Shown: positions 9,552 through 64,000 of the stretch, in pieces | Layout of the letters: the number at the start of each line of letters is the position of its first letter | Position numbering within the stretch: position 1 is the stretch's first letter | Origin: an uncultured Actinomycetota bacterium | GTDB taxonomy: Bacteria > Actinomycetota > Actinomycetes > Frankiales > Frankiaceae | Direction of reading: 5' to 3' | DNA: 64,000 nucleotides | NCBI GenBank assembly: GCA_963762695.1 | Contig: CAVXLW010000002.1 | Coordinates: 1,853-65,852 of the forward strand | Translations under genes and position numbers: made by a program | The notes under the pieces: model-generated | What the model saw: the letters and a program-made list of their open reading frames with translations, nothing else | Database searches by the model: none | What the model was told of the DNA's origin: nothing

Positions 9552-11513
9552 ATGAGCGTCGCCTCCGAGCGGATGCCCGCGGGCTCGTCTGATCTGGAAG
9601 TGCATTCCGGTCCTTTCGTTCAGGGTGCGGCGGTCGCGCTCGAGCGCGCCATCGGCTACCTGCGCGAGCAGCAGGATGAGGCCGGGTGGTGGAAGGGCGA
9701 GCTGGAGACGAACGTGACGATGGACGCGGAGGATCTGCTCCTGCGCGAGTTCCTCGGCATCCGTACAGCCGAGGAGACCGCGGCAGGCAGCCGCCTGGAT
9801 CCGTTCCCAGCAGCGCGCCGACGGCACGTGGGCCAACTTCTACGGCGGCCCGGCCGATCTGTCGACGACGATCGAGGCCTAGCTGGCGCTGCGGCTCGCC
9901 GGGAGACGGCGCCGACGCGCCGCACATCGGCGAAGGCTGCCGGCGTGGTCCTGCGCGGCCGGCGGGGTCGAGAGCCCCGCGTCTTCACCCGCATCTGGCT
10001 GGCGCTCTTCGGGCTGTGGTCGTGGGACGAGCTGCCGGACCTGCCGCCGGAGCTGATGTCCTGCTCCGCTGGGCGCCGCTTGAACGTCTACGACTTGGCC
10101 TGCTGGGCCCGCCAGACGATCGTGCCGCTGACCGATCGTGACCACCCTGGGCCGCAGCGGGCGCTGCCCGGCATCGACGAGCTGCCGCACGGGTGCCGCT
10201 GCCCCGGCATTCCTGTCCGCGCGCTCCTGGCGGCGGCTGCTTCCAGCGGCTCGACCGTCGTGCTGCACCGCTACGCGCGGCGGCCGCTGGCTGGCTGCGG
10301 CGGCTCGGCAGCCGGCGCGCGTGTGCGGTGGATCATCACCCGCCAGGAGGCCGACGGCGGCGTGGGGCGGGATCCAGCCGCCCTGGGTGTACTCGCTGCT
10401 GGCGCTGCACCTGAGCGGTTACGCGCTCGACTCCCCGGTCATGGCCGCGGGCATCAGGGCCTCGAGGGCTTCCTGGTGCACGAGGAGACGCCGCCGGCAC
10501 GGTTCGCCGGCTCGAGGCCTGCCAGTCGCCGGTCTGGGACACCGCGCTCGCGCTCGATCGGGCTGCTCGACGCCGGCGTGGACCCGCAGGATCCGATGGT
10601 TTCGCGGGCGGCGCGCTGGGTGGAGTCGACGAGGAGATCCGCGTCAGCGGCGACTGGGCGGTGCGGCGGCCGCAGCTCGCACCGGGCGGCTGGGCGTTCG
10701 AGTTCGAGAACGACGATTACCCCGACACCGACGACACCGCCGAGGTCGTGCTCGCGCTGCGACCGGGTGCTGCCGCGACCGGCGCGGATCGCGGCGCGAT
10801 CGAGCCGCGGGGTCGCCTGGACGGGCGGGATGGAGTGCCGCGGCGGCGGCTTGGGCGCGTTCGACGCCGACAACACCCGCGAGCTGGCCTACAAGCTGCC
10901 GTTCTGTGACTTCGGTGCGGTCATCGATCCGCCGTCGGCTGACGTCACCGCTCACGTGTCGAGGTGCTCGGCCGCCGAGGGGCGGGCTCGATACCCCGCG
11001 TGCCAGCCCGGGCGTCGCCTGGCTGCTCGCGCGAGCAGGAGCCCGACGGTTCCTGGTTCGGACGCTGGGGCTGCCAATCACGTCTACGGGGTCGGGGCCG
11101 CCGTGCCGGCGCTGGTCGCGGCCGGTGTCGAGGCGTCAGCGCCGGCGATCGTGCGGGCCGTTCGCTGGCTGCAGCGAACATCAGAACGAGGACGGCGGTT
11201 GGGGCGAGGACATGCGCTCCTACGACGACCCGGCCTGGGCCGGCCGCGGCGAGTCGACCGCGTCGCAGACCGCCTGGGCGCTGCTTGGCGCTGCTGGCGG
11301 CGAGAGGGTCGAGCAGGCAAGCTCGATCGCGGGAGTGGCCTGGCTCGATCGCCCATCAGACCGCTGCCGGGACCTGGGACGAGCCGCAGTTCACCGGCAC
11401 CGGGTTTCCCGGCGACTTCTACATCAACTATCACCTGTACCGGCACGTGTTCCCGGTGTCGGCGCTCGGCCGGTACTGCCGCGGCGGAGGGACGGTGGCG
11501 ACGATGGCAATGA
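9552..11513 (+). pseudogene. shc: Squalene-hopene cyclase, multiply frameshifted with one in-frame TAG
   Basis: ATG 9552 (MSVASERM..). Cyclase fragments lie in all three plus frames: AVALERAIGYLREQQDEAGWWKGELETNVTMDAEDLLLREFLG; WIRSQQRADGTWANFYGGPADLSTTIEA-TAG-LALRLAG; RVFTRIWLALFGLWSWDELPDLPPELM; NVYDLACWARQTIVPLT; GGWAFEFENDDYPDTDDTAEVVLAL (DxDDTA at 10724-10741); QNEDGGWGEDMRSYDDPAWAGRGESTASQTAWALLG; FTGTGFPGDFYINYHLYRHVFPVSALGRY. At least 7 frame changes between 9785 and 10085. The end is taken as TGA 11511-11513, overlapping the next ATG. Confidence 0.85.
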
Positions 11514-12105
11514 GCCGGGCGCTCGCGCGTGTTGGCCCCGTTGCGGGTCGAGGCGTCCGCGCCGTGCGCGCGGTGCTGCCGGCGCTGCCGTCGTGCGCAC
11601 CGGGATGGGCCGCGGCCGCGCGCCGACGCGCGCCGTCGGGCGCGCCGGTCCGGCGCACGGGGCCGGTGGCGGTCGTCGGCGTCTGCGGTGGGCTCGCGCC
11701 GCCCTGCGCGCCGGGCGACGTCGTCGTCGCCAGTCGGTGGTTCGCGGCGACGGCAGGTCGACGTCCCGTGCCCGTCCGCCCCGCTGCTCGCGGCGCTGCT
11801 GCGCCGGCGCCGGACTGCGCGTGCACGTCGGCCCGCTCGTCACGATCAGCGCAACGAAGCCCGCGCACCGACCCGCGCGACGCGCGGCAACTCGCAGGAC
11901 TCGGGCGCGATCGCCGTCGACATGGAGACGGCGGCGGTCGCCGCGGCCGCTGCGGCCGCCGGCGGCCCGCTCGCGGCCGTGGCCGTCGTCGTGCGCCGAC
12001 ACCGCCGCCGCTCCGCTGCTGGCATCCCGGCATCATCGAGCGCGGCATCGTCGCCCTGCCACGCTGCGCGAGATCGCGCCGCTGCTCGAGCAGTGGGCGG
12101 CGGCC
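11510..12105 (+). pseudogene. hpnG: Hopanoid-associated nucleosidase/phosphorylase HpnG, frameshifted
   Basis: ATG 11510 (ATGA with the shc stop). Fragments in three frames: LAPLRVEASA, AAVVRTGMGRGRA, VAVVGVCGGLAPPCAPGDVVVAS, GLRVHVGPLVT, SGAIAVDMETAAVA, TLREIAPLLEQWAAAAG. The 3' boundary is approximate. Confidence 0.6.
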
Positions 12106-13047
12106 GCCGGCGCCCGCGAGGTCGTGCTCGCCGTCGCCGCGCTCGTTCTGCGCCGGGGTCGAGCGTGCGATCGACACCGTCGCCGCTGCACTCGAACGCT
12201 TCGGGGCGCCGGTCTACGTGCGCCGCCAGATCGTCCACAACACTCACGTCGTGCGCCGAGCTCGAGCAGCGCGGGGCGCGGTGTTCGTCGAGGAGCTGGA
12301 CGAGGTGCCCGACGGGTGCGCGTTCATGTTCGCCGCGCACGGCGTCGCGCCCCAGGTGCGTTCCGAAGCGGTCGACAGCGGCGCTGGCTGTCATCGACGC
12401 GACGTGCCCGCTCGTCGCGAAGGTCCACAGCGAGGCGCGCCGGCACGCGCGAGCAGGCGACGCACCGTCGTGCTGGTCGGCCACGACGACCACGAGGAAG
12501 TCGGCGGGACGGTCGGCGAGGCGGAGGGCCGGATCCGGTGGTCGGCACGGCCGAGGAGGCCGACGCGGTGGAGGTCGAGCGACCCGAGCACGGGTCGCCT
12601 ACGCTGACGCAGACGACGCTGGCCGTCGACGAGGCCGAGCAGGTCGTCGCCGCGCTGCGGGAGCGATTCCCCGCGCTCGTCGGCGCCGCCGCCCGAGGAC
12701 ATCTGCTACGCCACGACCGAACCGGCAGAAGGCGGTGCGCGAGGTCGCGGCCGACGCCGACCTCGTCTCGTCGTCGGCTCGCCGAACTCGTCGAACTCGC
12801 GCGCGCCTCGTCGAGGTGGCCGAGCGGCGCGGGCGCCGCGCGCACTGCTCGTCGACGAGGCGCGCGGGCTCGACCTGGGTCGGCTGCGCGGCGTGCGCGC
12901 GGATCGGGCATCACCGCCGGCGCCTCGGCGCCGCAGAGTCTGGTCGATGAGGTGGTCGCACGCCTCGCCGGGCTCGGCCCGATCGCGTGCCGAGCGGCGC
13001 ACAGTGACCGAGGACATCCGTTCGCCCTGCCCAAGGAGGTGCCGTGA
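12106..13047 (+). pseudogene. ispH: 4-hydroxy-3-methylbut-2-enyl diphosphate reductase IspH/LytB, frameshifted
   Basis: Fragments in three frames: PRSFCAGVERAIDTVAAALERFGAPVYVRRQIVHNTHVV, GAVFVEELDEVPDG, FAAHGVAPQVRSEA, LAVIDATCPLVAKVHSEARRHA, VVLVGHDDHEEVGGTVGEA, TLTQTTLAVDEAEQVVAALRERFPAL, NRQKAVREVAADADLV, RLVEVAERRG, GITAGASAPQSLVDEVVARLAGLGP, FALPKEVP-stop (13045-13047). The 5' boundary is approximate. Confidence 0.75.
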
Positions 13048-13048
13048 C

Positions 13049-14057
13049 ATGGCCATGCCGTGCGTCAGAGCGCTGCGCATCGGGTGCGTATCTGGCTCAA
13101 GCAGAAGCTCGCCGGACGGAGAGGTTCCCGCTCGATCGTCGAGCTCGAGCCGCTGTTCGCGTGCAACCTGGCGTGCGCCGGGCTGCGGCAAGATCCAGCA
13201 GCCGGCCGAGTCCTGCTGAAGCAGCGGATGCCGGTCGAGCAGGCGCTCGCGGCGATACGAGAGTGCGGCGCGCCCGATGGTCTCGATCGCCGGCGGCGAG
13301 CCGCTGATGCACCCGCAGATCGACGAGATGGTCAACGCGCTGGTCGGCCGACAAGCGCTTCGTCTGCTGTGCACGAACGCGGTGCTGCTGCGCCAAGCAA
13401 GCTGGACCTGTTCCCCCGTCGCCGTACTTCACGTTGGCCATCCACATCGACGGCCTGCGCGAGCGCCACGACGAGTCGGTTGACAAGGACGGCGTGTTCG
13501 ACGAGGCCGTGGCGGCCGTGAACCTGGCGCAAGGCCAAGGGCTTCCGGGTCGCGACGAACACGACGTTCTTCAACACCGACACCCCGCAGACCGTCATCG
13601 AGGTGCTCGACTACCTCAACGACGAGCTCGAGGTCGACAACATGAGATCTCCCCGGCTACGCGTACTCGAAGGCGCCCGACCAGGACCACTTCCTCGGCG
13701 TCACGCAGACCCGTGAGCTGTTCAAGAAGGCGTTCGCCGAGGGACGCCGCAAGCGGTGGCGGCTGAACCACTCGCCGCTGTTCCTCGACTTCCTCGAGGG
13801 CAAGGCCGACTTCGAGTGCACGCCGTGGGGAATCCCCAGCTACTCGCTGTTCGGCTGGCAGAAGCCGTGCTACCTGATGGGCGACGGCTACACCGCGACT
13901 ACCAGGAGCTGCTCGACACCACCGACTGGGACAGCTACGGGCGGGGCAGGACCCGCGCTGCGACAACTGCATGGCCCACTGCGGCTACGAGCCGACGGCG
14001 GTGATCGCGACGATGGGCTCGCTGCGCCAGTCGATCCGGGCGGCGCTCGGGGGGTAG
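13049..14057 (+). pseudogene. hpnH: Radical-SAM adenosylhopane synthase HpnH, frameshifted
   Basis: ATG 13049 with GGAGG about 10 nt upstream. Fragments: MAMP..LRIG, KQKLAGR, IVELEPLFACNLACAG followed by CGKIQQPAE (the CxxxCxxC motif is split by a shift), LKQRMPVEQALAAIRECGAP, MVSIAGGEPLMHPQIDEMVNALV, AIHIDGLRERHDESVDKDGVFDEAVAAV, VATNTTFFNTDTPQTVIEVLDYLNDELEVDNM, PGYAYSKAPDQDHFLGVTQTRELFKKAFAEGRRKRWRLNHSPLFLDFLEGKADFECTPWGIPSYSLFGWQKPCYLMGDGY, YQELLDTTDWDSYGRG, DPRCDNCMAHCGYEPTAVIATMGSLRQSIRAALGG-stop 14055-14057. At least 7 frame changes between about 13080 and 13280. Confidence 0.8.
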
Positions 14058-14070
14058 CCCGCACGCAGGC

Positions 14071-15944
14071 TCAGCCCGGGACGCGATCCGCTGCGTCGTC
14101 GTGCCACGCGCTGCGGTCACGGCCGAGTTGCTTGGCCACGTACAGCGCCTGATCCGCCTTGTGGACGAGGGAGCCGACGTCGTCGTCGGGTGCGGAGTAG
14201 CTGACGCCGATGCTGCAGCGAAGGGGTACCGAGCTCGGCGCCGACGGCCAGCCGGCTGGCCGCGACGGTGCGGCGCAGCCGGTCTGCCAGCGCCTGTACC
14301 TCGTCGTGCGCTGCGGCCGGACCCGCCACGAGGTACTCGTCGCCGCCGACCCTGGCCACGATGTCGGACTCCCGCGCGGCAGTGCGAAGCGCCTGGCCGG
14401 TGAGGCGGATCGCGTCGTCCCCGACTTTGTGGCCGTAGCTGTCGTTGATGCCCTTGAGGTTGTCGAGGTCGATGTAGAGCATCATCACGGCCCGCGACTC
14501 GCGCCGCGCCATCGCGAGTTCGCGGATGACGGCCGACCGCGCGGCTTGCCGGTTGAGCAAGCCGGTGAGCGAGTCGTGGGTGGCCATCTCGTGCAGGATC
14601 ACCCGCTGGCGCTCGGCGTGGCGCACGGATTCCCGCAGCCGGTTGAGCGTGGTCTGCAGCGCCTGCCCGGTGCGGCCGGGAAGCGGTTCGTCGAGTGAGG
14701 GAAGCGTCCGGGTTCTCCGCGAGCGTCACCGTGAAGGCCTCGACGGCGCTGAAGACCGACGTCATCTCATCGACGGCAGCGATCGTGTCGGCAACCTCGC
14801 GGGGGCCGCCGGGCCGCACGCTCTGGAGCGCGAAATCGCCCTCGGCCACGCGACGCGCCGACGCCGACAGCCGCCGGAGCGGTCGCACGACCGCACGTGC
14901 CAGCAGGACCGTGGCACCGGCCGCGATCAGGACGCTGAGGGCAAAGATCGTCAGCTCGTTGCGGTAGCTGCGGGCCGCCGAAAGCGCCTCGCGGTGGGCG
15001 ACCTCGCGCATGTCGGTCGAGGCGCCTACCGTCACGGCGGTCAGCTCGTTCAGCCAGTGCGGCTCCTTGGTGAACGCGACACCGTACGCGAGGGTATTGG
15101 TCGCCAGCGGCGAGCGGAGTCCGGCCAGGGCCGTGTCGACTGTCTGGGCGATCGTCTGCTCCCAGGCTCGTGACTGCGGGTCCTTCTCCCACGCGGTCCA
15201 TGCCTCGGTGGCCTTGGGGCCCAGCCCGGCCGGGAAGCCCGCGGTGCTCGCGGCGAATGTGCCGTTCGCCTCGATCAGAGCCTTGGCGGCCGCCGGGGTG
15301 CCCGGGCCGTTCACCACCAGGTCGCTCTGCTGGGCCCGGCTCGTCGCGGCCATCAGCACGGCGAAGGAGTGCGACAGCGCGTCGACCCGCTCGGCCACCA
15401 GCCCGGTCTTGCCCGTCAGTTGCTCGATGTCGCCCTGCATGCTCTGAAAGCGGGCACGCCAGACGTTGTCGATGTCGATCTCGAAGTTCTCGAAGAACGC
15501 CCTGATCGTTTCGGCGTCACCACGACCCGTTCCGATCGAGGGGCGCAACTGGTGCAGCCGCTCGAGGTCGGCGATCAGGACCGGGTCCGAGCGCAGCGCC
15601 GGGCTGGCATCGACCAGCGGGCGAGCGGCACGGAGTTGTTTCGGGAAGTCGATCCCGAAGAGTTTCTTCACCTGCTCGTCGGTGATCTTGAACTGGGCTG
15701 CGGCCGCGAGTGCCGAGGACGGCACGTACTCGTTCACGATCATGGCGCGCGCGGCCATCAGCGCGCCGAGTTCGGTGGAATCGCGCTCCACCCGCGCGGA
15801 AATCTGCTGCTGCGCCCGGCTCCTGACAGCGGACCCTCCGGTCAGCGCCGCCAGCGCGGTCAGCGGCACCAGCAGCGCCAGGGCGAGCAGTAGCGCCACT
15901 CGGGGTCGACGCCATCGTCGGCCCGGCGACCTTGCGACCGTCAC
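14071..15944 (-). pseudogene. Membrane sensor diguanylate cyclase (TM, extracytoplasmic domain, TM, HAMP, GGDEF), two frameshifts
   Basis: The N-terminal two thirds lie in ORF 13935..16016: TM VALLLALALLVPLTALAAL, an extracytoplasmic region of about 300 aa, TM IFALSVLIAAGATVLLARAVV, HAMP RPLRRLSASARRVAEGDF. The GGDEF domain lies in ORF 14117..14626: HDSLTGLLNR, LYIDLDNLKGINDSYGH, RESD I-site, ARVGGDEYLV. The C-terminus is in the third frame: IGVSYSAPDDDVGSLVHKADQALYVAKQLGRDRSAW, stop 14071-14073. Frame changes are near 14693 and 14225. The likely start is GTG 15944, preceded by GGAGG (the ORF opens at TTG 16016). Confidence 0.75.
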
Positions 15945-21774: not shown

Positions 21775-22607
21775 CTAGCGCCAGTTCTCGCCGGCAGCGC
21801 ACGCGGCGAACGCGAGCCGGAAGGCGTCGCGCACGGCCCGTGAGACCTCGCGCAGCGCCTCACTGCGCCGGGCATCGGCAGCAGCGCTCAGCGGCTGCTC
21901 GCCCGCTGCCAGCTCGACGACCGCTTCGAGGCGCTGCGCCGTCGTCAGCACCCGGATCGCCTCCGGCGGCGACCCCGGTGGTAGCGGCAGCTTCAGGCCG
22001 CTGCGCTTGCGCAACGACTGGATCGCCGCGACGATCTCCGGGCTCAGCCGCCCGACCTGACCGATCTCGGCGATGACGTCGGCGGCCGCCGTCACGCTCT
22101 CGGACAGCACTCGCTCTGCCTCGCGGAGGCTGTCGGCATCAGCAGCGCCGCCGGTCAGGCGGCCGGGGATCGGGCAGAGCTCCCACTCGACGGTGACCAG
22201 CGGCTCCAGTGAACTGCCGCGCACGTCGACCTCGGGGTGAGCAGCCACCCATGGCCGGCGGGATCTTGCGGCTGCACGGCCACGGCCTCGCCGGCCCGCA
22301 GGGCTCGCGCCAGCGCCAGTCCCGTCATCCCGGCGGGATCGCCGGGAACGGGAAGGCGCAGCGAGACGTCGGCGGGCGCGGTGCGGCGCAGCAGCGGCAG
22401 CACCCGCGACAGCGGCACGGGGCCCGACTCGTCGGGCAACCCGCGCACGGTGTGAGGGGCATCGCCGCGCTGGGCGCCGGCGAGCAGGTCGTCGCTGGCG
22501 GCGCGGCCCGCCAGCCAGGCGCCGAGCCAGGCCACCATGAGCCCGCCGAGCAGCAAAGGCGCGGGCGGCCGGGTGGCTGGCCGGATGTCCGGGGAAGGAA
22601 AAGTCAT
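21775..22607 (-). pseudogene. Hypothetical protein, one frameshift
   Basis: The N-terminal half (MTFPSPDIRP..AGHGWLLTP) lies in ORF 22155..22994. The C-terminal half (EVDVRGSSLEPLVTVEWELCPIPG..AAGENWR) lies in ORF 21775..22839. The junction is near 22245. No family recognised. Confidence 0.5.
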
Positions 22608-22876
22608 CCGCAACAACGCTACCGGGCGATGGTCCGGCTCGCTGACGCCACCAGATCCGGGTGTTCTGCGCGTGAGGTGGCGCCGGTAGTTGGGGGGCCC
22701 GCAGCGGAGCGGCTGATAGCCTTGCACGTGGCGGGACGTTTTTTCCGCCGCTCCCGCGGGCGAGTGGCCCGCGAGGTCGCTTGTTCCGAGAGTTCGCTTC
22801 CCGGCTGGCCACGAGCCAGCCGCTGCCGACCGTCTCCAAGCATGTCGCGGCCTACAACCGCTGATGGAGTTTCTCC

Positions 22877-24407: not shown

Positions 24408-25575
24408 TCAGCTCACCAGCGAGCGTTCCAGCGCAGTACGAAAGCGGGGCGTGACGCGGACCCTGCCGAAGAACTCGGCGGTCCGCGCCGCCTCGCTTTC
24501 GACGTCCTCGGCCCCCTCCTTGCCGATGTCGGTCAGCAGCCGGAAGGCGATCTCGCCGTCCTTGCGCTGCGCCCAGCCGCCGACGATCTGCCCGCCCCAC
24601 CAGACGGTCGGGCCCGGATTGCCGGAACGGTCGAACAAGGCGGCCTCGCGGGTGTGGTCGCGATGCTCGGGATCGAGGTAGAAGGCGCGGCCGGTCCAGC
24701 CCATCACCGTCGGGTCGAGGGCGGGTAGCAGCCTGGCCCGCGGCGGCGGGCGGCGCAGGGTCCGCGGACGGATCGTCGTCGGCGAGCACGAACGCCGGCC
24801 CCTGGTCGATCGCCACCTCGAGGGTCGGCAGCTGCGCGAGCGCCCGCTTGGTGACACCGGCCGTCCAGCCGGTCCACCACTGGACGTCCGCCGCCGTCGC
24901 CGGCCCGTAGGACGCGAGGTAGGCCCGTACGAGCTGAACCTGCGCCTCGGCGGTCGGCAATTGTTCCGCCGTTGCAGGCGGTTTCGGCGCGGGAGACCAG
25001 CGGTACTGGCTGCTGATCCACGAGCCCTTCGGCCGCCCGCGCACGATCCTTCCCTCGGCGGCCAGGATGAAGAGCACCCGCGTCGTCATGCTCTGCGTGC
25101 CGCCGGCGATCTCGATCTGCTGACGGAGGCCCGGGACGGCGGCGCCCAGTTCGGTCCCGTACGCCTCCCCGCGCTCGATCAGCGCGTCCATGGTCGCGCT
25201 TTCCAGCCCTATCAGGTACTTCTCGCCGTTCGTGGCGAGCCCGGCAGCCTCGATGAAGCCGATGAGACGCGATCGCTCCCGGTCGGCGACGGCGCGGGTC
25301 GCGGCCGCGTGGACCACCGGCGCGAAATCGGTCGTGACGACGAACATCGTGCGGCGCATCCCGAGCATCCGCACCAGCGATCGGTCCTCGTAGAGCGCCT
25401 TCTCCAGCGCTCCGGTCGCCGGCGGGCAGCCGCGCGCCGCCGCCGACAGGTACACCGACGCGGGGTCCGTGGAGTGCAGCGCCACCAGCGCCGATGTGAT
25501 CGCCACCGGGTCGCCCTCAGGCTTGTCGAGCAGCTGCCGCCGTACGAGCCGGGCGCGTCGCTGCTCGTCGCTCAT
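24408..25575 (-). pseudogene. Winged-helix DNA glycosylase family protein (DUF1006, YcaQ/AlkZ-like), one frameshift
   Basis: N-terminus in ORF 24400..25593 (MSDEQRRARLVRRQLL..ALHSTDPASVYLS..RMLGMRRTMFVV). C-terminus in ORF 24408..24857 (LLPALDPTVMGWTGRAFYLDPEHRD..FDRSGNPGPTVWWGGQIVGGW). The junction is near 24750. Confidence 0.65.
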
Positions 25576-25678
25576 GACTATTGCGGACGTCACGTGAGCA
25601 TCCTGCCGGGAAGACGGACGCGGGACACAAAGTTGTAGCCTCTAAAAGGTTGCCAGAGAGCAAGGACTTGGAGGACGC

Positions 25679-31840: not shown

Positions 31841-31939
31841 ACCAAGCTTCGAAGCGTCCGCTATTGCCCGATACATCGCGCGGCCGAAGCGCGCGCCTCG
31901 CGTGCAGTGGCCGCCGACTGTGCTGCCAGGGTCGGCCCC

Positions 31940-47298: not shown

Positions 47299-47506
47299 TT
47301 CCGACCACGTTCACCTTCCGGCAACCCCGGCAAATGTTCGATGGACCTGCACAGGGAGGACAAATCGTGGTTTCCGCCGCGAGGCGATCGCTCCAGGTGC
47401 CGCGCCATGCACACCTGACGCGATATGAACTGTTGGGCGGCGGAGACTGCTGTGAGCCGCCCGCCCGATCTCCCATGGCGGCGGATCGCTCGAGGAACGG
47501 AGACCC

Positions 47507-48329
47507 ATGGCCCTGACGACCCCGGAGCGAGGACGAGCCCCGGTCTCCCCGGCGCCCGAGCGCAGCAGGGTCCGCGCGGACGTCAAGGCGCGCACCTACC
47601 GCACCGACCGGTGGTGGGTTCCGCCGCTTGGTGCAGTTCCTGGGGCTGATGGCCTTCATCGTGTACGGCACGATCGCGGCGTTCCGTAACGGCCACTACT
47701 TCGTGTACTCGTACCTGTCGCCGTTCTACTCGCCGTGCCTGACGAACAAGTGCGTCGACCACTACACGCCCGAGTTCCTCGGCGGGTGGTGGCACTTCTC
47801 GCCGGCGTTCCTGATCCTGATCTTCCCGCTCGGCTTCCGCTTCACCTGCTACTACTACCGGAAGGCCTACTACCGGGCCTTCTGGCTGTCACCGCCGGCC
47901 TGCGCGGTGCCCGACGGCCACAAGAAGTACACCGGCGAGAGCCGCTTCCCGCTCCTGATCCAGAACATCCACCGCTACTTCTTCTACATCGCGGGGCTGT
48001 TCGCGATCCTGCTGACGTATGACCTCGGCCGGTCCTTCGACATCCACGGCCACTTCTTCATCGGCGTGGGCACCGCGGTCCTTGCCATCAACGTCGCGCT
48101 CATCTGGATCTACACGCTGTCGTGCCACTCCTGCCGCCACATCATCGGCGGCAAGCTGAAGTCGTTCAGCAAGCACCCGATGCGCTACGGCTATTGGAAG
48201 TTCGTCAGCAAGCTCAACGCCCGGCACATGCTCCTGGCGTGGCTGAGCCTGATCTGGATCGGCGTCGCCGATCTCTACATCTGGCTCGTCTCGAACGGGA
48301 CCATCACCGACTACCACTGGATCTCTTGA
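47507..48329 (+). pseudogene. Succinate dehydrogenase/fumarate reductase membrane anchor (single multi-TM cytochrome-b-type subunit), frameshift near the N-terminus
   Basis: ATG 47507 has GGAACGGAGA upstream and gives ..KARTYRTDRWWVPPL. The TM body is in ORF 47628..48329 (VQFLGLMAFIVYGT..HSCRHIIGG..). One extra G at 47630-47631 separates the two parts. The stop overlaps the next ATG (TGATG 48327-48331). Alternatively the gene is intact from GTG 47628. Confidence 0.6.
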
Positions 48330-50222
48330 TGAGCGAATCCTCGAACGTGCACACCGCCCCGATCCATGCGACGGCTGCTGAGGTTCACGACTACGACGTC
48401 ATCGTGATCGGGGCCGGCGGCGCCGGCTTGCGTGCCGCGATCGAGGCCCACGAGAGCGGCGCCCGTACGGCGATCGTCTGCAAGAGCCTGCTCGGCAAGG
48501 CCCACACCGTCATGGCCGAGGGCGGCGTGGCTGCCGCGATGGGCAACGTGTGGCCCGAGGACAACTGGCGCGTGCATTTCCGCGACACCATGCGCGGCGG
48601 GAAGATGCTCAACAACTGGCGCATGGCGCAGCTGCATGCCCAGGAGGCGCCGGACCGCGTCAGGAGCTCGAGGACTGGGGCGCGGCGTTCGACCGCACGC
48701 CCGACGGCCGCATCCTGCAGCGTGACTTCGGTGGCCACCGCTACGCGCGGCTCGCCCACGTCGGTGACCGCACCGGCCTGGAGATGATCCGGACCCTGCA
48801 GAACCGTGCTGTGGCGCTCGCGCATCGACGTCTTCATGGAGTGCACCGTCCTGCGCCTGCTGACCGAGGGCGGGCCAGCCGGGTAACCGGATTGCGGGTG
48901 CCTACGCGTACTGGCGCGAGTCGGGAACGTTCGTGCAGTTCATCGGCGCCTTCGGTGGTGCTCGCTACCGGCGGCATCGGCAAGTCCTACAAGGTGACGT
49001 CGAACTCCTGGGAGTACACCGGCGACGGCCAATCGCTCGCGATCGAGGCCGGCGCCGACCTGATGGACATGGAGTTCGTCCAGTTCCACCCGACGGGCAT
49101 GGTCTGGCCGCCGTCGGTGAAGGGAATCCTGGTCACCGAGGGTGTGCGCGGTGACGGCGGCGATCCTGTAGCAACAGCGAGGGCAAGCGCTTCATGTTCG
49201 ACTACATCCCCGAGGTGTTCGCCTCCGAGACGGCCGACACCGAGGAAGAAGGCGACCGCTGGTACACCGACAAGAAGACCGCGCGGCGCCCACCCGAGCT
49301 GCTGCCGCGTGACGAGGTCGCCCGGGCGATCAACTCCGAGATCAAGGCCGGCCGGGGATCCCCCCACGGCGGCGTTTTCCTCGACATCGCCTCGCGCCGG
49401 CCGGCGGAGTACATCGAGCGCCGACTGCCGTCGATGTACCACCAGTTCAAGGAGCTGGCGGACGTCGACATCACCGAAGGAGGCGATGGAGGTCGGGCCG
49501 ACCTGCCACTACGTGATGGGCGGCATCCGGGTCGACGCCGACACCGCAGCGACCACCCTTCCCGGGCTGTTCGCCGCCGGTGAGTGCGCGGCAGGCCTGC
49601 ACGGTTCCAACCGGCTCGGTGGTAACTCGCTGGGCGACCTGCTCGTCTTCGGCCGGCGAGCCGGCGGCGTCCGCCGCGGAGTACGCCCACGCGCTGCCGC
49701 CGGGCAAGCGGCCGAAGGTCGATGAAAAGCAGGTGAAGGCACCGTGGCCGCGGAGGCGCTCGCGCCGTTCGAGCGCGACCCGCGCCAACAACCCCTACAC
49801 GGTTCACGCGAAGCTGCAGAACACGATGAACGAGCTGGTCGGGATCATCCGGACCGAGGCGGAGCTCGAGCGGGCGCTCAAGGAACTCGCTGTGCTGCGC
49901 GAGGAGGCCGCTACGGTCGGTGTCGAGGGACACCGCCAGTTCAACCCCGGCTGGCACCTCGCGGTCGACTTGCGCAACATGATGCGCGTCTCGCGAGTGC
50001 ATCGCGACAGCTGCACTCGCTCGCCACGAGAGCCGCGGCGGCCACACCCGGGACGACTATCCGGCCCCGATCCTGAGGTGTTCGGAAAGATCAACCACGT
50101 TTTGCGCTTGCGCGGTGGTGAGCTGCAATTGCGAGCCGAGCCACTGCCGCAGATGCCTGATGACCTGCGGGTGTTGTTCGAAACGCCTCCTGCGCACAGC
50201 CGAGACGAAGGCGGATTCCTGA
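48329..50222 (+). pseudogene. sdhA: Succinate dehydrogenase/fumarate reductase flavoprotein subunit, multiply frameshifted
   Basis: ATG 48329. Fragments in three frames: YDVIVIGAGGAGLRAAIEA..SLLGKAHTVMAEGG; ELEDWGAAFDRTPDGRILQRDFGGHRYARLAHVGDRTGLEMIRTL; VVLATGGIGKSYKVTSNSWEYTGDG..DMEFVQFHPTGMVWPPSVKGILVTEGVRGDGG; MFDYIPEVF..PPELLPRDEVARAINSEIKAGRGSPHGGVFLDI..LPSMYHQFKELADVDIT; MEVGPTCHYVMGGIRVD..GLFAAGECAAGLHGSNRLGGNSLGDLLVFGRRAG; NPYTVHAKLQNTMNELVGIIRTEAEL. At least 8 frame changes. Stop taken as TGA 50220-50222. Confidence 0.8.
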
Positions 50223-50981
50223 TGGGCTACGACCTGTCCATGCGCGTGTGGCGCGGTGATGCCGACGGCGGCGATCTGCGCGACTACACCGTGGCCGTGG
50301 AGGAGGGCGAGGTCGTCCTTGACGCCATCCACCGCATCCAGGCCACGCAGGCCGGGCGACCTTGCTGTCCGCTGGAACTGCAAGGCGGGCAAGTGCGGCT
50401 CCTGCAGCATGGAGATCAACGGCAAGCCGCGCCTCGCCTGCATGAGCCGGCTGTCGACCTTCGACCCGGCCGAGACCATCACGGTGACGCCGCTGCGCAC
50501 CTTCCCGGTCATCCGCGACCTGGTCACCGACGTCTCGTTCAACTACGAAATGGCCAGCCGGGTACCGGCTTTCGCACCCCGCCCGCGGGAGAAGGACGGC
50601 ACCCACCGGATTTCGCAGATCGACATCGACCGGGTGCAGGAGTTCCACAAGTGCATCGAGTGCTTCCTGTGCCAGACGGTGTGCCACGTCATCCGCGACC
50701 ACGACGAGAACAAGGAAGAGTTCGCCGGGCCGCGCATGTTCATCAAGTACGCCGAGCTCGAGATGCACCCGCTGGACACGAACGACCGGCGCGATCTGCT
50801 CCGTGAGAAGGCCGGCCTCGGGATGTGCAACATCACCAAGTGCTGCACCGAGGTCTGCCCGGAGCACATCAAAATCACGGACAACGCGATCATCCCGTTG
50901 AAGGAACGTGTCGTCGACAACTCCTATGACCCGCTCGTCTGGCTCGGACGCAAGATCAGGCGCCGGAGCAAGTCCGACTAG
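50222..50981 (+). pseudogene. sdhB: Succinate dehydrogenase/fumarate reductase iron-sulfur subunit, one frameshift
   Basis: ATG 50222 (MGYDLSMRVWRGDADGGDLRDYTV..). After about 50355 the sequence continues in ORF 50256..50981: DLAVRWNCKAGKCGSCSMEINGKPRLAC; CIECFLCQTVC; CNITKCCTEVCP. Confidence 0.8.
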
Positions 50982-55465: not shown

Positions 55466-55482
55466 CGCTTGGCCGGGTGCCC

Positions 55483-56289
55483 TCACGGGGTCGGCGAGAT
55501 GGCGACTACGGCCTCGGTCGTCTGCACGATGAACGTCAGCGACTCCTGGAGGTAGAGCTGACGTGCTCGGCGTCGTGGGAGAGGTAGCCGATCGACAAGT
55601 CCTGGCCGAGGTGCAGTTCGAAGTCCCGCCACGGGTGGAGAGCAGGAATGCGCCCTCGATCGCCGGCGCCCAGATGATCTCGCCGTCCTGGATCACGCGC
55701 GCGATGTGATCGTGGATCGGGTAGCCGTGGTCGGTCGTCTCGGCGACAGCGGTGTACGCCTCGGCTGACAGCAGCAGGCTGTACGGGCCGTCGACGCCGG
55801 CGAGCCGCAGCGAGGTGAGGGCCTGCGCGACGACGTGTCGGGAACTCCAGCTCGTCGGCCGGAAGCGAGAACGCCGGGTTCGAACTGCTGGCCCGGAGCC
55901 CGGCGATTCCGGCCGCCGTGAAACCGTCGGCGATGGCCCGGTCCTCGGCGAAGGCGATCTGTTTGGCGGCGTCTTTGACCGGCTGCCAGTCGGCGTCCTT
56001 GGCGCCGCGTTCGACCTCGTCGACCGCTTGCCGGTCGATCACGAACGGCACCCGGAACTCCACGATCGGCTGGGCGATTCGCGGCGCGGGCGCGGACCCC
56101 TGGGCGGGGCATCGAGCTCGCTGCAGGTGCCCGGTGCCCACGGCGGCCAGCCCCTCGCCGTCGGGCCCGACGACATCCACCACGCGCCGCCCGGCAACGT
56201 GGCGGGTGAACGTGCGATGCGCCTCGGCCTCGAGATCGGCCCAGGCGGCATCGGAGATCGGGCGCGAGTTCGCGATGCAGGTTGTTCAT
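55483..56289 (-). pseudogene. Family 1 encapsulin shell protein (linocin M18-like), multiply frameshifted
   Basis: ATG 56289 (MNNLHRELAP) overlaps the DyP stop (ATGA). Fragments in three frames: VDVVGPDGEGLAAVGTGHLQ..IVEFRVPFVIDRQAVDEVERGAKDADWQPVKDAAKQIAFAEDRAIADGFTAAGIAGL; VIQDGEIIWAPAIEGAFLLSTRGG; DFELHLGQDLSIGYLSHDAEHV; QLYLQESLTFIVQTTEAVVAISPTP-stop (55483-55485). The span of 807 nt is native size. Confidence 0.8.
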
Positions 56290-57351
56290 GCCGTGCTTCC
56301 CTTCAAACTGCCGATGCCGAGCGAATGGTCGACGGCGACGGCGCATGCTTCGGACTGATCGGTGGGTCAACGCGGACTGCACCGAAGGCCGCTCGGCGGG
56401 TCGTCCAGGAAGTCCGCCGACTCGGATGAAGAAGAGCGTGCCGGTGACCGGCGTGGAGAAGTCGAGGATGCGGTCGTAATTGCCCGGCGGATCGCCGAGG
56501 AACATGTTCGTGAGCATCTGCTCGGTGAGCTCGGGATGGCGGCGTAGCCGATGAAATACGTGCCGAACTCCGCCGTCGCCGACGCGATCCGAACGGCATG
56601 TTGTCGCGCACGATCTGACGCTGTTCGGCCATCTGGACCGACGATGGTGTTGAGCGCGACGTGCGAGTTCGACGGCTTGACGTCGTCGGCCAGTTCGATG
56701 TCGTCGAGCTTGGTGCGCCCGACGACGCGCTCCTGCTCCTCGACCGGGATGGCGCTGCCAGGCATCCAGGTCGTGCAGGTACTTCTGGACGATGACATAG
56801 CTGCCGCCCTCGAAGTCCGGATCCTCGTCGCCGATGAGCACGGCAGCTGCTGCCGACGGTCCGGTCGGGATTCTCGGTGCCGTCGACGAAACCCAGCAGG
56901 TCGCGCTCGTCGAAGTACTTGAAGCCGTGGACCTCATCCACGACCGTGGCCTGCGCGCCAAGCCGCCCGGTCAGCTTGCCACGCGAGCTCGAAGCACAGA
57001 TCCAGCGGCGGGCGCGCAGGTGGAAGAACAGATCCGCCGGGTCGTGGTCACGGTCTGATGACGCGGTCCGGCGATCTCCGGCAGCACGTGCAGCGCCGCC
57101 GGGCGAGGCGTCCCGAACATCCGGTCCCACAGCTCGGTGCCGATGCCGGCGCACGCAGGCGAGCTCGCCGCTCGGGGATCCGAAAGCCCACCGAGCGGCT
57201 CGAGCCCGGCGACGTCGGCGAGCAGGTCGCGGACGGTCTCCTCGGCGCCGTCCGCGATCGTGAGGACGAGGAAGATCGCCGCCTCGGTCAGCGGGGTGAG
57301 GATCGGCTGCGCCTGCACCGGGGGACCCACGGGCGGGGTCGGTGTCACCAT
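56286..57351 (-). pseudogene. DyP-type peroxidase with C-terminal encapsulin cargo-loading peptide, multiply frameshifted
   Basis: ATG 57351 (MVTPTPPVGPPVQAQPILTPLTEAAIFLVLTIADGAEETVRDLL). Fragments: TVVDEVHGFKYFDERDLLGFVDGTENP; VLIGDEDPDFEGGSYVIVQKYLHDLDAW; VEEQERVVGRTKLDDIELADDVKPSNSHVALN; FGTYFIGYA; MLTNMFLGDPPGNYDRILDFSTPVTGTLFFI. The terminal SLGIGSLKGSTA-stop lies at 56286-56324. Confidence 0.8.
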
Positions 57352-58376: not shown

Positions 58377-59881
58377 TCAGCCCTGCAGCTCGCGTACCCA
58401 CTCCTCGACGTCGTCGGCGGCGCGCGGCAGCGCGTCCGAGAGCACCCGGCATCCGCCGGCGGTCACCAGGACGTCGTCCTCGATCCGCACTCCGATGCCG
58501 CGGAATTCGGGCGGCACGGTCTCGTCGTCGGCCTGGAAGTAGAGCCCCGGCTCGACCGTGAGCACCATGCCCTCGGCCAGCGGTCCGCGCTGATAGTTCT
58601 CCGCTCGGGCGTGTGCGCAGTCATGCACGTCCAGGCCCAGCATGTGCGAGGTGCTGTGCAGCGTGTAGCGGCGGTGCAGGCCCACGTCCTCCTGCAACGA
58701 TTCCGCCGCCGGGATCCCGAGGATGCCCCACTCCTCGAGGGCTTCCGCGATCACCGCCATCGCGGCGCGGTGTGGATCGAGGAAGTCCGCACCCGGCTTC
58801 GTCGCGTCGATCCCGGCCTGCTGTGCCGCCAGCACCACGTCGTAGACCTGGCGCTGCACGTCGCGGAAGTGGCCGTCGATGGGCAGCGTGCGGGTGAGGT
58901 CGGCGGTGTAGAAGCTGTCGACCTCCACCCCCATGTCGAGCAGGGCCAGATCGCCGGCCTGCACCGGACCGTCGTTGCGGACCCAATGCAGCGTGGTCGC
59001 GTGCGCTCCGGCGGCCACGATGGATCCGTAGCCCACGTCGTTGCCTTCGAGCCGGGCGCGGCGCCAGAAAGTGCCCTCGATCCAGCGCTCACCGCGATCC
59101 AGGGACGACGCGACGGGCATCTCGCGTATGCACTCGGCGAAGCCCCGCCCGGTCGCAGCGATGGCGCGCTCGAGCTCCGCTACTTCGAACGGGTCCTTCA
59201 GCAGGCGCAGCTCGCTGCTGGCGATCGCCAGCGCCTGCTCGCGGGCGCGGTCACCGGCACGGCGCACCTTGCGGTCGACCCGCCGGTCGATGTCGCGCAT
59301 CACCCGGGTGGTGCCCGGGGCCAGCCCGTCGAGGGCCGCGCCGAGCTCCTCGAGCGGCCGGCACGTGATGTCGAGCGCTGCCGCGGTCTCTTTCACGCCC
59401 CGGCGGGGGCCGACCCACAGCTCGCCGTAGCGGCGGTCGGTGTAGAAGGCCGACGTATCGCGGCTTGCGCGGTCGGCGAGGAACAGCACGCCCTCGCCTC
59501 CGGGGTGCACGATCAGCACCGCGTCGGGTTCGGCGCAGCCAGTCAGCCAGACGAAGTCGCTGTCGGGGCCGAAACGGGTAGTCGGTGTCGTTGGCGCGGA
59601 TCTTCAACGGCCCGCTGGGGACGACGAGCGTGTCGCCGGGGAAGTGCTGGGAGAGCGTGAGGCGGCGCTGCCGGGCGCGTCCGGCAGCCGGCTCCGGCTC
59701 GGTTGCCAGCGCGGCAGGCAGCAGCCTCCCAGCCGGTGGCCATCCATTGCTCGAGACGGCCGGCAGGGGGAAGGTCGTGGGTAGCCGGAAGGGTTGGCCC
59801 GCCTATGGATGACGCGTTCCCGGCGGGCGCGGAGGCGGATTCCGAGCCTCGCGTGGCCGCTCGCTTGGGATCGAGTTGCAT
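58377..59881 (-). pseudogene. Xaa-Pro aminopeptidase (M24B, aminopeptidase P family), two frameshifts in the N-terminal domain
   Basis: The catalytic domain is intact in ORF 58377..59519: DLALLDMGVE..YTADLTRT, HSTSHMLGLDVHD, LTVEPGLY, GVRIEDDV. The N-terminal pieces are MQLDPKR..RLEQWMATGWEAA (ATG 59881) and ALATEPEPAAGRARQRRLTLSQHFPGDTLVVPSGPLKIRANDTDYPFRP. Junctions are near 59735 and at the G-run 59565-59568. Confidence 0.75.
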
Positions 59882-61214: not shown

Positions 61215-62026
61215 ATGGTGATCACCAAGCCGGCTCCCTTGCCGCGCTCGTGGCGGCCGCTGTCGCGCTCGGGCTGGGCCTGAGCGCCTGCGGCCCGGGA
61301 AGCGGTACTCACGTCGCCGCACCGAGCCCCACCTCGGCGGCGCCGGCCACGCCGACCCCGCCGTCCCTCGCCCCGTCCACGACAGCGTCCCCCGAGCCGG
61401 CGCCCACTGCCGCGAGCCCGTCGCCGACCCATGTCGGACTCGCCGTGGGTGACGAGGGCCCCGCGGTCCTGGCCTTGCAGCACAGGCTTATCCAGCTCGG
61501 CTTCTGGCTGAGCGCCACCGACGGTTCCTACGGGAACACCACTCAGCAAGCCGTCCTCGCGTTCCAGAAGGCGAAAGGCCTCGAGCGAGACGGGGTCGCC
61601 GGCCCGCAGACGATGAAGGCCCTCGCCACCGGGGTCGCGATCACGCCGCGCAGCACCGCAGGACACGTGCTCGAGATCGACAAGACCCGCCAGCTGCTGC
61701 TCATCGTGAACGACGGCAAGATCGCCGACATCCTCAACACGTCGACCGGCAGCGGCCAGCCCTACCAGCAGGGTGGGCAGACCTACCTCGCGCTGACACC
61801 CTCGGGCCAGTTCACGATCTTTCGCCAGGTCGACGGCGACGACCCCGGACCGCTCGGTGATCTCTGGCGTCCGAAGTACTTCAACGGCGGCATCGCCATC
61901 CACGGGGCTGCGGATGTGCCCGGCTATCCCGCCAGCCACGGCTGCGCCCGGCTCAGCAACGCCGCGATCGACTGGATCTGGAGCGCCGACCTGGCGCCCA
62001 TCGGCACCAACGTGTGGGTCTACTAG
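61215..62026 (+). pseudogene. L,D-transpeptidase lipoprotein with peptidoglycan-binding domain, frameshift just after the start
   Basis: ATG 61215 (GGGAGG upstream) gives MVITKPA.. in one frame. The signal/lipobox SLAALVAAAVALGLGLSAC and the rest are in ORF 61064..62026: PG_binding_1 GDEGPAVLALQHRLIQLGF..DGSYGNTTQQAVLAFQ, and YkuD region IAIHGAADVPGYPASHGCARLS. The shift is near 61235. Confidence 0.7.
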
Positions 62027-63067
62027 CCCGCTGCGGTGGGGGGCACGGGCCCTGGCTGCGCGCCGGGTTTGTCGAACTGGACCGGAGCCAGCGGTCCTGG
62101 GCACCGGTTCCGTGCGCAGCCCCCTGGCTCCGGCCGCTGCCGACGCACCGGCGGCCGCTCCGAGCACGGCGGCATGGACCGCGTCCTCGCGCTCCAGTTC
62201 CTCGCGCGAGAGGTCGAGCGTGGCGTTGAGCTCGGCGCCGAGCAGCACCGCGAGTGCGGTGACGTACAGGAACAGCAGCACGGCGACCGGAGCGGCGAGC
62301 GCCCCGTAGGCGATCGTCCGCGAGAAGACGAAGCGAATGTAGGAGCGCAGCCCCCAGCTGCCCAGGTACCAGATCACCAGTGCGAAGACGGCGCCGGGCA
62401 GCGCCGATCGCCATCGCCGCCGGTGTGGGACCGACATGTGGTAGAGCGTCGCCAGGATGATCAGCGACACCACCGCGGCGATCGGCCAGTAGACCAGGGT
62501 CACCGCGTGATGGACCCACGGGGTGGTGTGCTTGCCCAGCAGACGGTCGATGGCGGTGGGGCCGAGCACCAGGGCCGGCAGCAGGAGGACGGCGGAGGGC
62601 ACCTGCAGGATGTAGACCGGGGCGCTAGCAGGCGGCTCTTGACCGCGCCGCGCTCGTGCCGCTCGCCGTACGCGATCGTGATGGTGTTCACATACGTGGC
62701 CATGGCCGACGAGCCCGACCACAACGACGTGATGAAGCCGATCGAAATGACGTCGGGGCGGCCCTTGCGCAGGATGTCGTCGATCGTGGGTTTGACCTGT
62801 TCTGCAGGTCGACTGGTCAGGAAGTGCCCGGCGGCCTGCAAGATGCTGTGTTCGATGCTGTCGACGGTGGAGTGGCCGGTCAGCCCCGGCGAAGTAGCCG
62901 ACGGTCCCGAGTACCGCCAGCAGCAGCGGCGGGAGCGAGAGCAGCTGCCAGAAACCGGCCTCGGCGGCGAGTCCGAGGACCCGGTCGTGCCAGGCGCGCA
63001 CCAGCGTGCGGCGCATGCGTTCCCACGGTGTACAGCCGGCGATGGCGCCGCACCATGGGCTTATCAT
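62023..63067 (-). pseudogene. YihY/BrkB-family membrane protein, frameshifted
   Basis: N-terminus and TM body lie in ORF 60977..63118: RTLVRAWHDRVLGLAAEAGFWQLLSLPPLLLAVLG; VYILQVPSAVLLLPALVLGP..LYHMSVPHRRRWRSALPGAVFALVIWYLGSWGLRSYI..AAPVAVLLFLYVTALAVLLGAELNA. The middle piece is in ORF 62500..62841: DVISIGFITSLWSGSSAMATYVNTITIAYGE. The probable stop is TAG 62023-62025 in a third frame. Start is ATG 63067 or 63016. Confidence 0.6.
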
Positions 63068-63210
63068 GACGCCCCAGTGTGACCGACGATGCGCCAGGTG
63101 CTGGTCATGGGCCAGCACTCGCGGGACGCGATCGGCGCCGGCCGAGCGCAGAAATCAAACACCCGCCGGCGCCTGGGTGGGCGCGGGCGGGGGTTTGAAA
63201 AGGCTGTTGA

Positions 63211-63429
63211 TCAGCCGCGGGTCGAGGACAAGTCGAGCTGGTCGGACTCGTCGTGAATTTCGACAGCGACCTGGCCGAGCTTGTCGCCGTGGGCACGAGC
63301 GTGGTGGCGGCAGAACATGAGATCGCCGCCACCGGCGAGAACAACGCGTACATATGCTTGCGCGCCGCAGCGGTCACAACGGTCGGTCGCGGTCAGAACT
63401 GGAGTCGGTGCGGGAACGGTACCTGTCAC
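63211..63429 (-). CDS. Small conserved actinobacterial Cys/His-containing protein
   Basis: Within ORF 63211..63441. GTG 63429 is preceded by GGAGG with a 5-nt spacer. Sequence VTGTVPAPTPVLTATDRCDRCGAQAYVRVVLAGGGDLMFCRHHARAHGDKL. I recall this pattern from small hypothetical proteins of Streptomyces and mycobacteria. Confidence 0.65.
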   Translation of the reverse strand: MTGTVPAPTPVLTATDRCDRCGAQAYVRVVLAGGGDLMFCRHHARAHGDKLGQVAVEIHDESDQLDLSSTRG

Positions 63430-63579
63430 GCTTACCTCCAACAGTCGGTCGCCCGCATTCCTTCCGGGCCGTCAGTCGCACGCATCGATCCTGACTATGC
63501 CTGCTCTATCGGCATTCAAGCCTTCCCGGACGCGAGAACGCTCACAGACACCGAACGTTTTGAAATCGAAACCAGCTTG

Positions 63580-64000
63580 TTACGACCGCCGGGCTCCGAA
63601 GAGGATGTCGTCCCAGGCCGGGACGGCACTGCGGCGCCGTGCGGACTTCGCGGGCTGGCGCGCCGGACGCTCTGCTGCGGAGCGCGCCGCGTCGGTGTCG
63701 TCGGCATCATCGCCGGCCGACGCCGAAGGCTCAGCGCCTCATGACGCGCCGGGGCACTGCCGGAGCCGGGGACCTCGTTCTCGCCCGGAGTCCAGTCAGG
63801 GGCGGCGGTCCTCGGGGCCGCGGGTGCGCTGGTGCCGGGAATGTCGTCCAGGGTGGGGGCGGCGGCGCCGGCCTGTGACCTCGCCTCCGCGGGTGCCGCC
63901 GAACCGCCCTCGCCTGCGAGCACGACGAGCCCGGAACGCGGCGAAGCCGACCGGCTCGGGGCGGAGCCGGACATCGTGGACTCGCCGACGGCCCGCGCGG
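63580..64000 (-). pseudogene. 3' part of a gene for a Pro/Ala-rich protein with a basic W-D-D-I-L-F-G C-terminus (SepH/DUF3071-like tail?), frameshifted and truncated by the window edge
   Basis: ORF 63516..63974 carries low-complexity SAPSRSASPRS..APAAPRTAAPDWTPGENE. The last 50 codons or so read in another frame: SAGDDADDTDAARSAAERPARQPAKSARRRSAVPAWDDILFGARRS-stop (TAA 63580-63582). The junction is near 63730. The family call is tentative. Confidence 0.3.

Follow-up and report, generated by a model that had tools for sequence, protein, structure and literature searches.

Introduction

Metagenome-assembled genomes (MAGs) built from Nanopore long reads or at low coverage retain insertions and deletions (indels), and indels of a single nucleotide (nt) split otherwise conserved genes in such records (PMC9262707; PMC12007338; PMC12313526). 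The MAGs of the Microflora Danica Nanopore catalogue (MFD-LR) were obtained from Nanopore reads only, with Flye (--meta --nano-hq) and one round of Medaka, and their authors noted an error-related low coding density in the lower-coverage ones (PMC12313526). The same group reported that Nanopore bins below ~40x keep frameshift-causing indels (PMC9262707). Here, we analyze a 64-kb stretch of contig CAVXLW010000002.1 (hereafter, the window; ~70% GC) from an uncultured actinobacterium, whose record is evidently a metagenome assembly, and in which the hopanoid genes shc, hpnG-ispH and hpnH, the sdhA and sdhB genes, an encapsulin gene and the gene for its DyP-type peroxidase cargo are all interrupted by frameshifts. 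Taken at face value, the window implies that this bacterium has recently lost hopanoid cyclisation, Sdh/Frd, the DyP-encapsulin nanocompartment and several exporters. We conclude that this inference would be false, and that the lesions are very probably (with a probability of about 0.9) consensus errors in the deposited contig rather than mutations of the organism, as judged from comparison with its relatives.

Two other situations have to be kept in mind when looking at such a locus. Mycobacterium leprae is an example of pseudogene decay in reductive evolution, and strain-level mosaicism or a collapsed-haplotype consensus occurs in metagenome assemblies. Leaf-nodule Burkholderia provide another example of such decay (PMC6054270), which resembles the window in that many adjacent genes carry multiple frameshifts and are still recognisable. 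Curated bacterial pseudogenes exhibit an insertion-to-deletion ratio of 0.76 and broad deletion sizes, with a mean of ~19 nt and only a third of the deletions being of 1 nt (PMC6054270). They also accumulate nonsense and nonsynonymous changes, and bacterial mutation is biased from GC to AT (PMC2936535). In contrast, the window showed an excess of insertions, mostly of 1 nt, hardly any stop codons, constrained substitutions in most of its lesion blocks and GC enrichment in the worst of them.

The window resembles long-read assemblies in that its lesions are missing from short-read assemblies of close relatives, and in that sister Flye+Medaka MAGs are damaged in other genes. Unlike the usual long-read errors, its indels are not associated with homopolymers, are extremely blocky and are dominated by insertions. 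Moreover, one block adds ~8% of GC-enriching, substitution-like noise, which is worse than what imperfect polishing ordinarily leaves behind and suggests a stretch that was hardly polished at all or that mixes reads. As in strain mosaicism or a collapsed-haplotype consensus, the blocks appear to coincide with segments of divergent ancestry, namely those bearing sdhAB, the encapsulin gene and the hopanoid genes.

Sequences and comparisons

The squalene-associated desaturase HpnE and the helicase HrpA of the window match database entries at 100% identity, both from one contig of 67,162 bp in NCBI and ENA that is evidently the source record. Relatives came from a genome collection in which they are labelled as Frankiaceae, Mycobacteriales or "uncultured Actinomycetota" MAGs. 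The 4.8-18.4 kb part of the window is spanned by L001 (ENA ERZ25039489 contig_80256), a Flye-named contig encoding a 96% identical HpnE. L014, L018 and L004 are three stretches of contig_5746 of MAG MFD09671.bin.1.125. L015, a Joint Genome Institute short-read contig, spans 17-41 kb, and L002 and L003, two megahit "SMAG" Frankiaceae contigs, span 43-64 kb. Last, L019 is an independent megahit short-read soil contig from an unrelated study (SRR5487326), with 97-98% nt identity over 45.9-63.1 kb.

A change was taken as private to the window when the relatives, two or three of which were aligned in each comparison, agreed with each other and the window differed. Private indels of 1-2 nt were counted in three- and four-way alignments, which provided ~51 kb of comparable sequence. 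For the 43-64 kb part, trimmed alignments replaced a six-way MAFFT alignment that had many uncovered columns. DNA-level calling was used instead of tblastn frame maps made with the relatives' proteins; these were too coarse because off-frame high-scoring segment pairs continue without stops in DNA of 70% GC. For indel correction, private insertions were deleted and private deletions padded, and the genes were then translated. In the case of sdhA, a relative-rate test with L019 was confounded because the ancestry of the segment differs, and a four-way comparison was used instead.

Window-private indels cluster in blocks and all lie on the window branch

We counted ~150 window-private indels, which break ~23 genes. 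This number agrees with the "about 24" broken genes of a first-pass annotation made from the letters of the window alone. The same annotation had described dense blocks of lesions separated by clean ones, and their distribution bore this out: 58 of the 102 bins of 500 nt were devoid of indels, while 23 were expected under random placement, and the variance-to-mean ratio was 4.5, to be compared with a maximum of 1.76 among 10,000 random placements. The stretches that it had listed as clean were indeed so, the few events found within them being all intergenic. Block edges ignored both gene edges and strands, and cut through genes.

In the blocks where relatives could be aligned, and with outgroups, every indel was found to lie on the window branch. 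When L019 was used for comparison, the window carried every frameshift in sdhA, sdhB and the encapsulin, DyP, PepM24, YkuD and BrkB genes, and 15 of 15 genes were full length in L019. Among the indels, 1-nt insertions outnumbered 1-nt deletions (95 and 42, respectively, a ratio of ~2.3:1). Events of 1 nt made up 78% of the frameshifting ones, and the largest private deletion was 20 nt. Once corrected for indels, all genes read full length with zero or one internal stop each.

A possibility was that the shifts had arisen by slippage in short G/C runs, in which the first-pass annotation had placed those that it could pin to a base. Yet no homopolymer enrichment was found among the private indels: 65, 23 and 12% of them fell in runs of 1, 2 and ≥3 nt, against a background of 58, 29 and 12%. 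Because the context of the indels equals background, we rejected homopolymer slippage, whether biological or of the classic Nanopore kind; noise arising from low depth or mixed reads fits better than a systematic homopolymer error.

Substitutions remain constrained in most blocks

If the genes had truly died, their substitutions should tell. The sdhA and sdhB genes (48330-50981, forward strand) have 13 frameshifting indels in sdhA (48.66-50.35 kb) and one in sdhB, at position 50350; both are intact in L019, with 629 and 252 amino acids (aa), respectively. The encapsulin gene (Linocin_M18; 55483-56289, reverse strand) has eight frameshifting 1-nt indels, and the DyP-type peroxidase gene (56290-57351, reverse strand) has 16, the lesions of the pair lying in 55.56-57.36 kb. 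Their L019 counterparts are intact as well (268 and 346 aa). The BrkB gene, on the reverse strand within 61218-63056, carries seven frameshifting indels in a dense block at ~62.1-63.5 kb.

In encapsulin, the window-private substitutions were distributed as 8/3/18 over the three codon positions (18 synonymous, 11 nonsynonymous), and those of the intact L019 gene as 6/2/18 (18 synonymous, 8 nonsynonymous). In sdhA, the private substitutions as compared with three relatives were distributed as 1/3/16. A modest nonsynonymous excess was observed in DyP. Altogether, signs of relaxed selection are slight or absent in the sdhA, encapsulin, DyP and BrkB blocks, and encapsulin has none. Because long-dead genes should show relaxed constraint, the presence of 8-16 frameshifts without loosened constraint argues against these genes being truly dead.

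Could the window nevertheless record a genuine and very recent pseudogenisation, that is, a loss of selection on hopanoid synthesis, Sdh/Frd, DyP-encapsulin and several transporters, followed by decay through frameshifts? The lesions do stand in the public record, wherein the deposited hrpA call is truncated at the same place as in our alignments, and several of the affected genes have dispensable accessory functions. The form of the lesions speaks against it. Insertions prevail over deletions and nearly all are of 1 nt; real pseudogenes show the reverse, in their deletional bias as in their indel sizes (PMC6054270). Encapsulin and sdhA stay constrained in spite of their 8 and 13 frameshifts, and no gene has more than a single nonsense codon. 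In addition, the blocks begin and end inside genes and run across convergent ones, and relatives at 96-98% identity are fully intact. The first-pass annotation had argued that there were too many indels per substitution for neutral decay, and this holds quantitatively. Together with the hopanoid block, for which see below, these points make pseudogenisation very unlikely.

We also considered that exact conservation of gene length might carry a signal, since native start-to-stop spans had been claimed for encapsulin (807 nt) and for shc (1962 nt). The first was recovered, with a net indel of 0, but the second was not: shc spans 2043 nt in the window and 2025 nt in a relative. Net indels are multiples of 3 in encapsulin, shc (+18) and hpnG-ispH (+27), but amount to +25 in DyP, +4 in hpnH and +4 in sdhA. 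Exact length conservation was hence rejected as a signal, and the multiples of 3 were treated as a coincidence.

Incidentally, DyP lies directly upstream of the Linocin_M18 encapsulin gene with a 4-nt overlap (55483-57351), which makes a classic cargo-shell operon, intact in L019.

The hopanoid block carries substitutions that look non-biological

The most severe block (9677-14430), referred to as block 1, covers the hopanoid genes, and private substitutions and indels together affect ~11% of its sites. It sets in abruptly at 9677-9704, ~220 nt into shc, and has decayed by 14100-14430, inside the 3' part of a convergent HAMP-GGDEF gene. The shc gene (squalene-hopene cyclase; 9456-11498, forward strand) has 28 frameshifting indels (22 insertions, 7 deletions), the hpnG-ispH fusion (PNP_UDP_1 + LYTB; 11491-13047, forward strand) has 32, and hpnH (radical SAM; 13049-14057, forward strand) has 15. 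In the HAMP-GGDEF gene (14089-15929, reverse strand), two +1 insertions fall within the 3' third, at 14229 and 14702. In the relatives, shc is intact with 674 aa in L001 and 640 aa in L014, hpnH is intact with 334 aa in both, and the HAMP-GGDEF gene is intact in L014 with 616 aa. At least seven frame changes had been proposed in each of two short intervals. For 13080-13280, seven shifts were reproduced; for 9785-10085, about seven were seen by BLAST, but only four to five by multiple alignment.

The first-pass annotation had also held that there was almost no amino-acid decay, which turned out not to apply to this block. After removal of the indels, its proteins were 78-89% identical to those of the closest relative, while the flanking genes stood at 97-99.7%. 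We counted 375 window-private substitutions in block 1, against ~110 on the L001 branch. Per 500 nt, the window had 23-62 private substitutions between 9.5 and 14 kb and L001 had 9-19, whereas in clean bins both had the same number, ~5 each. Over the same 9.5-14 kb, ~85-115 indels fell on the window branch and 0 on the L001 branch.

The distribution and the nature of these substitutions were unusual. They were spread near-uniformly over codon positions (109/113/158), while the L001-private ones in the same genes were distributed as 29/5/81. The transition-to-transversion ratio was 0.57, as compared with ~1-1.5 in the flanks, and 41% of the changes were C<->G. AT sites were altered twice as often as GC sites, mostly to G or C, and the GC content reached 0.733 in the window, against 0.701 in L001 and 0.693 in L014, the flanks being equal in GC. 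Furthermore, the private differences came in adjacent runs (54 doublets, 19 triplets, 10 quadruplets and a few runs of 8-9), while L001-private changes were all singletons (117/117). Judging from these alignments, the substitution spectrum of block 1 looks non-biological. It is the spectrum expected if each base were matched to one drawn at random from the local composition, and points either to misregistration between close compensating indels or to random consensus noise.

These data bear on pseudogenisation too. The nonsynonymous excess of block 1 (237 nonsynonymous, 143 synonymous) is what relaxed selection predicts. On the other hand, the spectrum is GC-enriching and transversion-rich, against the GC to AT bias of bacterial mutation (PMC2936535). 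Rates provide a further argument. Codon positions 1 and 2 have changed at 7.3% of sites (222/~3040), and the synonymous divergence on the window branch in the flanking genes was estimated at ~2.4% (51 changes/~2100 synonymous sites). The former is ~3 times the latter, which is more than neutral decay can have produced since the split from L001; even pseudogenisation at the very moment of that split could not account for the change in block 1 at a normal mutation rate. The near-simultaneous biological loss that the first-pass annotation had offered as its other option is thus contradicted by the insertion bias, the substitution spectrum, the constraint seen in most blocks, the scarcity of nonsense codons and the block edges lying inside genes.

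As a side observation, hpnG (PNP_UDP_1 nucleosidase) and ispH/lytB form a single gene of 509 aa within the hopanoid cluster, and this fusion is conserved and intact in L001 (5404-6933) and L014 (5297-6826).

Blocks coincide with divergent segments rather than with GC-rich ones

GC-rich patches had been proposed as the cause of the lesions. We rejected this candidate, as the relatives' GC in block 1 is 0.701 and that of the flanks is 0.711 and 0.701, and as few parts of the window have a lower GC than the sdh and encapsulin blocks (0.66-0.69). The high GC of the window itself in block 1 arises because the private changes themselves raise it.

Divergence was a better predictor. On the branch of the intact relative, dense bins carried 11.4 substitutions per 500 nt, as compared with 4.5 in the clean ones (Spearman 0.67, p = 6e-9). 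This raised divergence is true, because errors in the window cannot create substitutions on the branch of a relative. The sdhAB segment (48500-50900) was mosaic: window and L019 were 87% identical there, vs 97-98% on both sides. The window was closest to L003 (92.7%; 92-93% for L003 and a further relative, L005), while L019 was closest to L004 (95.2%). This discordance may come either from homologous replacement among related soil lineages or from a chimeric assembly, be it of the window or of L019. In the encapsulin block, likewise, window-L019 identity was 90.9% vs 98% in the flanks. From these alignments, the coincidence of blocks with divergence suggests segments that are strain-variable, poorly covered or supported by mixed reads.

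Two observations were made around the encapsulin gene. At 55500-56500, a stretch of ~1 kb, the divergence between window and L019 rises abruptly to 9%, on both branches, which makes this a second candidate recombination tract. Besides, in L002 (8049-9360) and L003 (6574-9375), the HhH-GPD glycosylase and encapsulin genes are separated by 1.3-2.8 kb of additional DNA. This DNA includes an open reading frame (ORF) of ~414 aa, weakly similar to the beta-lactamase-family gene of the window; it is missing from the window (junction at 55466-55487), and L004 and L019 align straight across.

The divergence data raise the question of whether the contig is itself a chimeric mosaic, a particular way of producing the artefact wherein an abundant strain alternates with rarer related strains or species and the dense blocks represent a rarer strain, genuine in their ancestry but covered by very few reads. 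The switch of nearest relative at sdhAB, the drop of identity in the encapsulin block and the 2.5-fold rise of relative-branch substitutions in dense bins would all be expected from such an assembly. The discordance is, however, equally explicable by real homologous recombination in either lineage or by chimerism of L019, and the window is still closest to L001 in the hopanoid block. A third difficulty comes from the indel-only block at 38327-41359 (~37.9-41.4 kb, reverse strand), in which alignment to relatives revealed ~20 private events: no substitution excess was found there in comparison with the more distant relatives available for that part. On balance, we consider chimerism to stand a little short of an even chance. 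The genes broken in this indel-only block, all on the reverse strand and all intact in L015, are VIT1 (38390-39145), ABC2_membrane (39196-39951), ABC_tran (39979-41000) and the gene following it (40997-41869).

Recombination might also have acted on the organism rather than on the assembly. In this scenario of localised hypermutation, error-prone synthesis, for instance in the course of recombinational repair or when diverged DNA is imported, would have showered short tracts with ±1 indels. The blocks do coincide with raised divergence or mosaic ancestry, where mutagenic recombination tracts are expected. We know of no bacterial process, though, that gives one indel per 40-100 nt over kilobases, and it would have had to strike six to seven separate tracts within 64 kb on one short branch. 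Besides, the GC-enriching, C<->G-rich substitutions in adjacent runs resemble misregistration noise, and the sister long-read assemblies are damaged likewise in other genes. Hypermutation thus appears next to impossible. A more specific version, in which imported or recombined diverged tracts (sdhAB, encapsulin-DyP, hopanoid) were resynthesised by an error-prone polymerase in real indel showers, leaving ±1 indels clustered on the scale of kilobases, as a recombination-tied bacterial analogue of kataegis, seems extremely improbable.

Consensus errors and their likely origin

We come back to consensus errors in the deposited contig, the explanation that we favor. The first-pass annotation leaned toward an unpolished long-read consensus, and the tests of polarity, indel spectrum, selection and block edges strongly supported this leaning. 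Judging by its nearest neighbours, the contig most likely belongs to a long-read-only soil MAG (Nanopore, Flye and one Medaka round). L001, L004, L014 and L018 all have Flye-style contig names and come from the Microflora Danica Nanopore catalogue, and damage of the same sort was seen among them. In MFD09671.bin.1.125, the VIT1, beta-lactamase, APH, hrpA, DEAD-box helicase and PNPOx calls are truncated as compared with L015 (L018 2900-7200, 10001-12997 and 15765-18713), and hrpA has a frameshift different from that of the window, leaving 998 aa vs ~1290. In L001 (2509-4384 and 17139-19483), the HAMP-GGDEF gene is in three pieces and a class II ribonucleotide reductase gene is in two. In contrast, the short-read contigs L015 and L019 have no such damaged genes. 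Two further points may be mentioned about these neighbours: MFD09671.bin.1.125 is a GTDB species representative, and in L001 a pyridine-nucleotide oxidoreductase gene is fused to a downstream glyoxalase gene.

How such blocks arise may be pictured as follows. Most of the contig would be well polished, and a few segments of 0.4-5 kb would have been built from too few or mixed reads. In these poorly supported segments, random 1-nt insertions and deletions would remain, and in the worst one (9.7-14.4 kb) dense substitution and misregistration noise would have been left as well. The blocks would be strain-variable stretches, carrying recombinant or divergent alleles. Where a segment is conserved, several near-identical strains living together would all contribute reads, and their pile-up would yield a clean consensus. 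Where it is variable, the path would be supported only by this strain's few reads, or by conflicting ones, so that both depth and consensus quality would drop and the draft would stay poorly polished or unpolished. The 0.4-5 kb length of the blocks matches the scale of read lengths. We give an even chance to this part of the explanation, that is, to the blocks being strain-variable or recombinant segments with few or conflicting reads.

Some observations sit uneasily with consensus error. The error mix of block 1, with ~8% of substitution-like and ~2.5% of indel differences, does not resemble the textbook profile of raw reads from either Nanopore or PacBio, nor are its GC-enriching bias and its high substitution-like share accounted for by this explanation. 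The link with sequencing technology is imperfect, as the short-read relative L003 also has seven private 1-nt deletions. The platform, as well as depth or strain mixture as a cause, was deduced from sequence comparison only. Also, a few of the isolated frameshifts may be genuine, for example the one at 28084, which lies in a G run of hrpA.

The losses of function that the window implies should not be reported until confirmed at the level of reads. More generally, caution is needed when this MAG, or a comparable long-read MAG of low coverage, is used for gene calls, metabolic reconstructions or pseudogene counts. Artefact and decay can be told apart without reads by five checks: a rate test with two relatives, the codon-position and transition/transversion spectra of private changes, the insertion-to-deletion ratio, the GC drift, and the position of tract boundaries relative to gene boundaries. 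The fall of error blocks in strain-divergent segments is a useful hint as to where the consensus of long-read metagenomes fails.

Isolated frameshifts and other features

Isolated single frameshifts were found at 22236, 24757, 26710, 28084, 46518, 47628, 50350, 59565, 59720 and 61234. The first four lie between 22 and 29 kb. They consist of a 1-nt deletion in an Rv1486c-like gene (21784-22625, reverse strand), a +1 in an AlkZ-like gene (24411-25593, reverse strand), a +1 in an MFS transporter gene (25679-27122, forward strand) and a +1, a G added to a GG run, in the hrpA helicase gene (27135-31014, reverse strand). The public hrpA call is shortened to 1115 aa, vs ~1290 aa for the intact protein. 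Further along, a second AlkZ-like gene and the gene of a SdhC-like membrane subunit (46164-48328, forward strand) carry the +1 shifts at 46518 and 47628, respectively. The peptidase M24 gene (58377-59743, reverse strand) carries the insertions at 59565 and 59720; it lies in the interval 58377-59881, which had been listed as a dense block and is in fact sparse, with just two to three events. The YkuD gene, within 61218-63056 on the forward strand, has the deletion at 61234.

One broken gene stood apart. The DUF222/HNH (13E12-type) gene (32200-33513, reverse strand) needs at least four frame changes, its three frames having been read by eye. Because the relatives lack an ortholog at the same locus, these changes cannot be polarised. 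The surrounding 31030-33600 is an insertion relative to L015 and L018, and bears a lipoprotein-like ORF (31259-31840) in addition to the DUF222/HNH gene. Strand composition is unusually strong at 32-33 kb, with a GC skew of +0.22 and an AT skew of -0.21.

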